Source of the DNA: Escherichia phage vB_EcoP_CU10EC | Strand: one strand, 5' to 3' | Sequence record: PQ435408.1 | Length of the DNA stretch: 64,000 nt | Shown: piece by piece, positions 28,702 to 29,196 of the stretch | How positions within the stretch are numbered: position 1 is the first letter of the stretch | Layout of the letters: the number at the start of each line of letters is the position of its first letter | Program-made: the position numbers and the translations under genes | The notes under the pieces: generated by a model | The model's input: only the letters and a program-made list of their open reading frames with translations | What the model was told of the DNA's origin: nothing | Databases searched by the model: none

Positions 28702-29196
28702 TTATAGAATTACCCAGTCTTCTGCTAATACATCTGACTGGGATGCTAACCATGGTACTAATTTATCATCTGCTGTTTTCATGCAGATAAATGGTAACGT
28801 ATGCAGCCCATCCACCCCGTGAATGTCGCATTCAAAATCCCAAGCCCCTCCGGATACCATGAACAGGAACATACCTTTTCCATTCCAACCTTTACGGGCT
28901 AGTTTGTAGCCTGATTTGAGAAGCTCTAATGCATGACCAAAGGTACAACCTTTTTTCGTGTCACGGTATGCTTCTTCAAACGCAGATTTTGGTGACCAGC
29001 TAATATAGCCACGGAACTGAGGATGGTTGGACTTAGAGTCTGGGTACTCGACTAAGTAACCCTCTTCTAGCGTATTTTCATCTGCTGGTAAATACCAGCC
29101 ACGAAGTTTGCAGTATGTTTCTTTGCTCATCGGGAAACCATTTACACACTTGGTTCCGATATAGTTGGTGAAATGGACTTTAATTTCTTCTGACAT
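28702..29196 (-). CDS. DUF2829-domain protein (Tad2-like fold), candidate anti-defence protein
   Basis: C-terminal ALELLKSGYKLARKGWNGKGMF ... LVPWLASQSDVLAEDW matches the DUF2829 signature as I recall it; ATG 29196 with GAGGT RBS (ORF track extends to 29334). Confidence 0.55.
   Translation of the reverse strand: MSEEIKVHFTNYIGTKCVNGFPMSKETYCKLRGWYLPADENTLEEGYLVEYPDSKSNHPQFRGYISWSPKSAFEEAYRDTKKGCTFGHALELLKSGYKLARKGWNGKGMFLFMVSGGAWDFECDIHGVDGLHTLPFICMKTADDKLVPWLASQSDVLAEDWVIL

Follow-up and report, generated by a model that had tools for sequence, protein, structure and literature searches.

The two-domain gene

We analysed a gene of Escherichia phage vB_EcoP_CU10EC in a 64,000-nt stretch of its sequence (record PQ435408.1), hereafter the window, whose positions serve as coordinates throughout. 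The gene occupies positions 28702-29196 on the minus strand and codes for a 164-aa protein in which an N-terminal domain, here called N-dom, is joined to a Tad2 sponge domain. An original prediction, made from the nucleotide sequence, had proposed a candidate anti-defence protein with a DUF2829/Tad2-like C-terminus, and this anti-defence reading is well supported by our analysis. The Tad2 half adds a member to a known family and lies in a known genomic hotspot, and the combination of N-dom with Tad2 is an uncharacterised variant. What is new here is that N-dom forms a large family tied to six sponge families.

The open reading frame (ORF) begins with an ATG at 29196, comprises 164 codons and ends with a stop codon at 28702-28704. 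A Shine-Dalgarno sequence, GAGGT (29201-29205, minus strand), could be read directly from the sequence 4 nt 5′ of the ATG. A longer alternative ORF, started by GTG, would code for 210 aa; however, homologs are 160-166 aa long, indicating that the ATG at 29196 is the correct start. The translation contains both strings quoted in the original prediction, LARKGWNGKGMF and LPFICMKTADDKLVPWLASQSDVLAEDW, and the predicted ORF is thus real. The gene is an ortholog of N4 gp49 and of IME11_19, its counterpart in Escherichia phage IME11, which is annotated as 'DUF2829 domain-containing protein'. In PHROGs, phrog_872 covers the whole two-domain protein (E-value 2e-64). The protein is 98% identical to P0001, the first of a group of closer relatives (P0001-P0059) that includes homologs from N4-like phages. 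PADLOC gave no match for this gene, as expected of an anti-defence gene.

Tad2 domain and its pocket

The C-terminal domain (aa 85-163; 28708-28944, minus strand) was assigned to the Tad2/DUF2829 family on the basis of Pfam, matches in the PDB and the fold of a structural model. Pfam family PF11195 (Tad2-like, formerly DUF2829) matched residues 85-163 with an E-value of 9.2e-27 over profile positions 2-72 of 73, and the score of 93.8 bits compares with a curated cut-off of 25 bits. Searches of the PDB by phmmer with the full-length protein retrieved seven solved Tad2 structures, namely 9eib (MoTad2), 8v3e (Tad2), 9kzr and 8kbi (AcrIIA7/HgmTad2), 8sme and 8wje (SPO1 Tad2) and 8wjd (SptTad2), with E-values from 1e-18 to 5e-14; the same seven were found with the Tad2 domain alone (2e-19 to 3e-15). 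In an AlphaFold2 model, the Tad2 part had a predicted local distance difference test (pLDDT) score of 90.6 and consisted of a helix (86-94), four strands (99-101, 110-114, 136-140 and 146-148), a second helix (153-157) and a last strand (161-163). This order of helix α1, β-sheet, α-helix and last β-strand agrees with the published description of Tad2, the comparison being one of secondary-structure order. The Pfam search that had been suggested as a check and the secondary-structure order of the AlphaFold2 model agreed with the predicted identity of the C-terminal domain.

Residues of the ligand pocket were compared with those of HgmTad2 by means of HMMER alignments and the ligand contacts listed by Li et al. 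In the pocket for glycocyclic ADP-ribose (gcADPR), identical residues (HgmTad2 first) were W21/N22/G23 and W104/N105/G106, M76 and M139, V84 and V147, W87 and W149, L88 and L150, S90 and S152, and D93 and D155, and T92 was substituted by S154. HgmTad2 also has a cyclic-dinucleotide pocket, which needs a 41-aa insertion with R31, S47, F70 and N85 (Li et al.); we regarded a β2-β5 insertion of 35-41 aa with these four residues as the mark of a dual sponge of the HgmTad2 type. Such a pocket was not found in the protein analysed here, in which V114 replaces R31 and T133 replaces F70; in addition, N85 is deleted and nothing corresponds to S47. The insertion in its Tad2 domain is 21 aa long and SPO1-like, versus 41 aa in HgmTad2.

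Of the homologs that Hadary et al. tested (Table S2), the nearest were #82 (58% identity) and #83 (57%), and identity to SPO1 Tad2 was 56%. Both #82 and #83 inhibited type I Thoeris only. In the table of Hadary et al., proteins with a WLASQxD segment inhibit type I Thoeris, and type II inhibitors as well as MoTad2 carry W[TV]PSxxD. The canonical gcADPR pocket and the restriction of the nearest tested homologs to type I Thoeris give no indication of a new ligand specificity, contrary to what the original prediction had expected. Judging from its sequence, the domain probably has an ordinary specificity, that of a sponge for 3′cADPR.

A sponge-associated N-terminal domain

N-dom spans approximately aa 10-78 (28963-29169, minus strand) and is characterised by the motif YIGTK..PM..Y..RGW.LP..E..EGYLVEY...N...GYISWSPK..FE.AY. 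No Pfam family matched in the N-terminal 80-85 aa. The AlphaFold2 model of N-dom, a monomer with four main strands and two helices, had a pLDDT of 90.5. A profile built from stand-alone members matched 2,462 representative clusters at E-values up to 1e-3 and 1,259 at E-values up to 1e-10. In addition, 123 records of isolated phages carry N-dom, including phages of Escherichia, Vibrio, Klebsiella, Pseudomonas, Rhizobium and Clostridium. The high pLDDT and the 2,462 clusters matching the profile argue that N-dom is a real domain, and the predicted fusion of Tad2 to a distinct N-terminal domain without an assigned function was confirmed.

Searches for relatives of N-dom gave no match between its profile and PDB sequences at E-values up to 10, and Foldseek against the PDB detected no solved structural relative (best E-value 0.7). 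In contrast to these searches, hhalign aligned N-dom to the N-terminal domain (residues 1-70) of RyR Tad, the product of gp68 of Pectobacterium phage CB1, with a probability of 96.4% and an E-value of 1.3e-9. A Foldseek search of BFVD linked it to an RyR-domain protein of Yersinia phage TG1 (E-value 1.8e-4, template modelling score 0.68). RyR Tad is a two-domain gcADPR sponge (Fedorova et al. 2026, bioRxiv 10.64898/2026.06.04.730250). By profile comparison, N-dom and the N-terminal domain of RyR Tad belong to the same domain family. The expectation that the N-terminal domain would be new was thus not fulfilled, as the domain had already been seen in RyR Tad. Tad3 was also annotated by Fedorova et al. 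2026 in the hotspot of N4-like phages, and they describe the N-terminal domain of RyR Tad as a fold whose function is unknown. In their crystal, it forms a strand-swapped dimer via β1 with a five-stranded sheet, and both domains contribute to the dimer.

Other assignments of N-dom were considered, and two of them were rejected. The phage L Dec domain (PDB 6E3C), which was filtered out by Hadary et al., had an hhalign probability of only 0.7%. Lockin is a different protein family; yet two Lockin homologs (Tal et al. Table S4) bear N-dom at their N terminus. An assignment to Tad3-Tad8 is disfavoured only indirectly, in that Fedorova et al. 2026 treated the domain as distinct from the Tad3 that they annotated and no solved structure resembles N-dom.

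N-dom partners and stand-alone copies

Pfam domains found next to N-dom in its 146 best representatives were Tad2 (51), Sequestin (42), Acb4 (19) and an Acb2/Tad1 hairpin (1). A known sponge domain is therefore carried by at most 113 of these representatives (77%), since a protein with several sponges may enter more than one of the Pfam counts. We also parsed the domains of 387 N-dom proteins ourselves. Their architectures comprised Ndom-Tad2, Ndom-Sequestin, Ndom-Acb4, Acb4-Ndom-Sequestin, Ndom-Sequestin-Tad2, Sequestin-Ndom, Tad2-Ndom, Ndom-Acb2hp and Ndom-RyR, with N-dom in an N-terminal, internal or C-terminal position, and 32 of the proteins consisted of N-dom alone. PHROGs independently holds Ndom-Acb4 (phrog_9467) and Ndom-Sequestin (phrog_32732) families. 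With the Lockin homologs, N-dom joins six structurally unrelated sponge families: Tad2, Sequestin, Acb4, Acb2-like, RyR-Tad and Lockin. Tails of N-dom fusions to which no family could be assigned were mostly singletons or frameshifted Tad2 domains; the only recurrent partner of this kind in the sample was a C-terminal domain of about 75-125 aa in P0258 and P0292.

Stand-alone copies occurred in different settings. In a metagenomic contig (L011:706-1701), an Acb4 gene is followed by an ORF of 39 aa and then by separate genes for N-dom (83 aa) and Sequestin, the stop codon of N-dom overlapping the Sequestin start; the triple fusion Acb4-Ndom-Sequestin is present here in split form. Other stand-alone copies were located in accessory regions where no sponge gene was recognised close by.

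Mean pairwise identity of N-dom was 0.58-0.67 (typically about 0.62) regardless of the class of its partner. When the nearest N-dom was determined for each N-dom of a Tad2 fusion, it belonged to a Sequestin fusion in 23 cases and to a Tad2 fusion in 22. In proteins selected over their whole length, conservation of N-dom and Tad2 was 0.63 versus 0.57 overall and 0.77 versus 0.65 among P0001-P0059. In a set selected by N-dom, the values were 0.62 versus 0.38 for Tad2 and 0.61 versus 0.32 for Sequestin, a contrast that is inflated by the choice of the set. Conservation of N-dom thus equals or exceeds that of the Tad2 domain. Identity independent of the partner, together with this strong conservation, suggests an autonomous module under its own constraint rather than a lid or adaptor whose evolution is coupled to that of one particular sponge pocket.

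Of the properties by which Tal et al. 2025 recognised sponges, N-dom (about 70 aa) shares those of being short, phage-encoded and fused to or located beside known sponges. However, the fusion search behind the discovery of Sequestin was based on Pfam and could not have found N-dom, which has no Pfam family. No N-dom protein is present among the tested candidates in Table S2 of Tal et al., and N-dom is absent from the Tad2 homologs that Hadary et al. tested. In the literature searched, we found no description of the family-wide link between N-dom and sponges.

Genomic setting

The region of the window analysed is 96.8% identical to phage IME11 (Gamaleyavirus, Schitoviridae, N4-like). On one side of the two-domain gene lies the gene for the virion RNA polymerase (vRNAP), a 3,487-aa ORF on the plus strand (17766-28229) that is annotated as such in IME11 and 24-32N. 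The two genes are convergent, with 472 bases between the end of the vRNAP ORF and the two-domain gene, in agreement with the predicted position beside the virion RNA polymerase. On the other side, further along the minus strand, are a RuvC-like gene, a gene for single-stranded DNA-binding protein (SSB), an AAA_24 (Sak4-like) gene (34538-35290, minus strand; Pfam) and a primase gene (PriCT_1; 35347-37557, minus strand; Pfam E-value 1.2e-7); the SSB and RuvC-like genes are annotated in IME11 and 24-32N.

In N4-like phages, an "anti-signalling hotspot" has been described between primase and vRNAP, with Tad2, Tad3, Acb4 and Sequestin among its contents (Fedorova et al. 2026). The window contains this interval, bounded by the vRNAP and primase genes, with the SSB and RuvC-like genes and genes for Acb4 and Sequestin within it. 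Both sponge genes are on the same strand as the two-domain gene and not more than 1.1 kb away from it. The Sequestin gene (28262-28498, minus strand) was identified by PF21825 (Pfam E-value 3.5e-17) and by the annotation of IME11_17, and the gene for Acb4, an anti-CBASS sponge (29794-30270, minus strand), by PF13876 (E-value 2e-30). PF13876 is the Acb4 family (Chang et al.), and PF21825 is Sequestin, which was shown to sponge 3′cADPR (Tal et al. 2025). Three known sponge families, Acb4, Tad2 and Sequestin, are thus packed into 2 kb. The presence of a three-sponge island in a published hotspot lends strong contextual support to the anti-defence reading, and the two neighbouring sponge genes support the original proposal of a candidate anti-defence protein. 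A Tad2 gene at the hotspot position is not new, as it was already reported by Fedorova et al. 2026.

Two small genes without an assigned function are interleaved with the sponge genes and are, by their position, candidate anti-defence genes. One codes for 77 aa (28458-28691, minus strand; phrog_9565) with a weak hint of a helix-turn-helix, and the other for 82 aa (29341-29589, minus strand; phrog_29724). The true start of the Sequestin gene is probably internal, IME11 annotating 204 nt. This gene sits immediately before a terminator shared with the vRNAP gene, a strong intrinsic-terminator-like hairpin (28235-28258, minus strand) that was found by a sequence scan just beyond the vRNAP stop codon and closes the minus-strand island. 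Between the 82-aa gene and the two-domain gene is an 8-bp GC-rich hairpin (29214-29234), terminator-like on both strands with a weak T tail on the minus strand, and another terminator-like hairpin (30308-30277, minus strand) stands at the start of the minus-strand block. A scan of the island for sigma-70 promoters found none. N4 middle genes use the phage RNA polymerase II, and the absence of sigma-70 promoters from the island therefore says little.

The junction of the Acb4 and 82-aa genes is spanned by a 155-nt tandem duplication (29526-29835) whose two copies are 99% identical. It creates a chimeric 51-aa ORF (29589-29744, minus strand) and alters the 3′ end of the Acb4 gene, and hence the C-terminus of Acb4, compared to IME11. 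The duplication may be genuine variation or may have arisen during assembly of the sequence. Positions 28000-30500 of the window (2,501 nt) align to only 2,275 nt of IME11, the window being about 226 bp longer. Beyond the Acb4 gene, approximately 2.4 kb (30300-32700) are without a convincing ORF, and almost nothing is annotated there in IME11 or 24-32N; a tRNA-Ile gene (anticodon AAT; 30548-30626, minus strand) lies within this region.

Proposed function and alternative explanations

Taken as a whole, the protein is best explained as an N4 gp49-type anti-defence protein that combines a Tad2 sponge with an autonomous N-dom, and we consider this explanation likely. Our analysis shows which domains are present, how the pocket is conserved, where the gene lies and how often N-dom is fused to sponges; oligomeric state, ligand, effect in vivo and any activity of N-dom are inferred, as follows. 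The Tad2 domain would form the usual Tad2 homotetramer and sequester an ADP-ribose signal made by a TIR (Toll/interleukin-1 receptor) protein, most likely the 3′cADPR (1′′-3′ gcADPR) of type I Thoeris. The GWNG loop would build, together with the WLASQSD segment, the pocket that holds the ligand, and sequestration of the ligand would keep the host effector silent. By homology to the RyR Tad crystal, N-dom may dimerise by a swap of its first β-strand. The gene would be expressed, along with the genes for Sequestin and Acb4, from the accessory block on the minus strand that converges on the vRNAP gene, and the products would act as a multi-sponge island.

We tentatively propose, as the most likely role but at somewhat less than even odds, that N-dom adds a second anti-defence activity that does not depend on the partner, by binding a further small immune signal. 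Its view as an anti-defence module is suggested by the existence of stand-alone genes, by combinatorics like those of sponges and by very high conservation across host phyla. It is possible, although we would put it clearly short of an even chance, that N-dom represents a new anti-defence family, most plausibly a dimeric sponge for a signal that is not covered by Tad2, Sequestin, Acb4, Acb2, RyR-Tad or Lockin.

Several observations weigh against this account. In the Tad2 pocket, two peripheral positions differ from HgmTad2 (A78 to T141 and T82 to K145). Tad2 and Sequestin would be redundant if both were aimed at 3′cADPR in one island, so that Tad2 might instead bind a different TIR product; ligands known for some Tad2 proteins include His-ADPR, N7-cADPR and cUMP/cCMP. 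As for N-dom, known sponges have positively charged pockets, and N-dom is not basic overall and has two invariant acidic residues, E40 and E50. The N-terminal part of RyR Tad (gp68_N, residues 1-86) had by itself no activity on type I Thoeris, for which gp68_C was enough (Fedorova et al. 2026). The literature searched gave no experiment on the protein analysed here or on N4 gp49.

The inactivity of gp68_N and the sufficiency of gp68_C would be expected if N-dom were only a structural accessory that, by strand-swapped dimerisation or by helping assembly, stabilises or cross-links the fused sponge. The protein would then be no more than a Tad2 sponge equipped with a handle for oligomerisation. 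In the RyR Tad crystal both domains take part in the dimer and the N-terminal domain is swapped via β1, and all partner sponges assemble from an even number of subunits, as dimers, tetramers or hexamers, which would suit an additional domain that dimerises. However, these sponges oligomerise and function without N-dom, about 10% of the sampled members stand alone, some without a recognised sponge gene nearby, and the domain may be N-terminal, internal or C-terminal. Its conservation is also no lower than that of Tad2, which binds the ligand, and many of its aromatic and charged residues are invariant, among them K16, Y28, R32, W34, Y47, Y64, W67 and K70. A purely structural role appears slightly less likely than a second anti-defence activity. 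Weak matches to Tudor-like folds raise another idea, that N-dom binds a conserved host protein and inhibits it or localises the sponge through this contact. Candidates, by analogy, would be the β subunit of RNA polymerase (compare the Tudor-like domains of CarD, Mfd-RID and UvrD) or a TIR or effector protein (compare Tad3-Tad8); the conservation pattern speaks against such binding, which we judge improbable. What is left of the probability falls to some other role of N-dom.

A different function altogether is implied by GenBank records in which homologs from Mimir124, phi1_146050 and Huey are labelled 'anti-CRISPR protein', and AcrIIA7 (9kzr, 8kbi) was indeed among the PDB matches. However, E. 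coli is not known to have a type II-A CRISPR system. AcrIIA7 is the same protein as HgmTad2, a binder of gcADPR and cyclic dinucleotides, and Li et al. report that Tad2 does not antagonise SpyCas9. In addition, Yirmiya et al. argued that DUF2829 proteins are anti-Thoeris and not anti-CRISPR. An AcrIIA7-like anti-CRISPR function is therefore very improbable. The same label is attached to Gp52 of 24-32N, the counterpart of the neighbouring Acb4 gene. The 'anti-CRISPR' labels of Mimir124, phi1_146050, Huey and 24-32N were probably inherited from AcrIIA7 and are likely outdated.

The Tad2 half adds little; the value of the finding is in N-dom, which is widespread, strongly conserved and without a Pfam model. 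If N-dom is an anti-defence module, phages attach it to whatever sponge they carry or encode it alone, and with 2,462 clusters it would be among the larger sponge families, hidden until now for want of a Pfam model. If it were purely structural, it would be a general device that improves sponges. The guilt-by-fusion logic that uncovered Sequestin makes N-dom a concrete candidate, cheap to test, for a new phage strategy against nucleotide-based immunity, and the model phages N4 and IME11 both carry it, which makes the genetics straightforward.

Comparison with known systems

Compared to characterised Tad2 proteins (SPO1 Tad2, HgmTad2/AcrIIA7 and MoTad2), the protein shows 48-58% identity and retains both gcADPR-holding elements, a GWNGKG loop and a W-L-A-S-Q-S-D segment. 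It differs from them in an extra N-terminal domain of 80 aa, which is present in no characterised or solved Tad2, and from HgmTad2 in its short, SPO1-type insertion of 21 aa and in the lack of R31, F70 and N85. Sponge-sponge fusions (Acb4-Tad2, Sequestin-Tad2 and Acb4-Sequestin) were described by Tal et al. 2025, and N-dom joins the same combinatorics; unlike the domains of these fusions, it has neither a demonstrated ligand nor a Pfam family.

RyR Tad of phage CB1 has an N-terminal domain of the same family, a comparable layout of N-dom followed by a C-terminal gcADPR sponge and a location in the N4-like hotspot. However, the C-terminal sponge of gp68 is not Tad2 but an all-helical domain that resembles RyR Repeat12, and its N-dom is divergent and lacks the RGW.LP.DE motif.

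N4 gp49 (EF056009, 160 aa) is an ortholog that is 68% identical over its full length and has the same two-domain layout. It is likewise located directly before the convergent vRNAP gene and after an Acb4 gene (gp48). The names are a trap in this case: PF13876 is called 'N4 Gp49 / Sf6 gene 66', but in the N4 record (EF056009, 33632-34485) Acb4 is gp48 and the protein with N-dom and Tad2 is gp49. The two orthologs differ mainly in the Tad2 half, which diverges much more than N-dom (82% identical) and has WVPSQSD in N4 in place of WLASQSD. The loci also differ, in that the IME11-type island adds Sequestin and a small gene between the two-domain gene and vRNAP.

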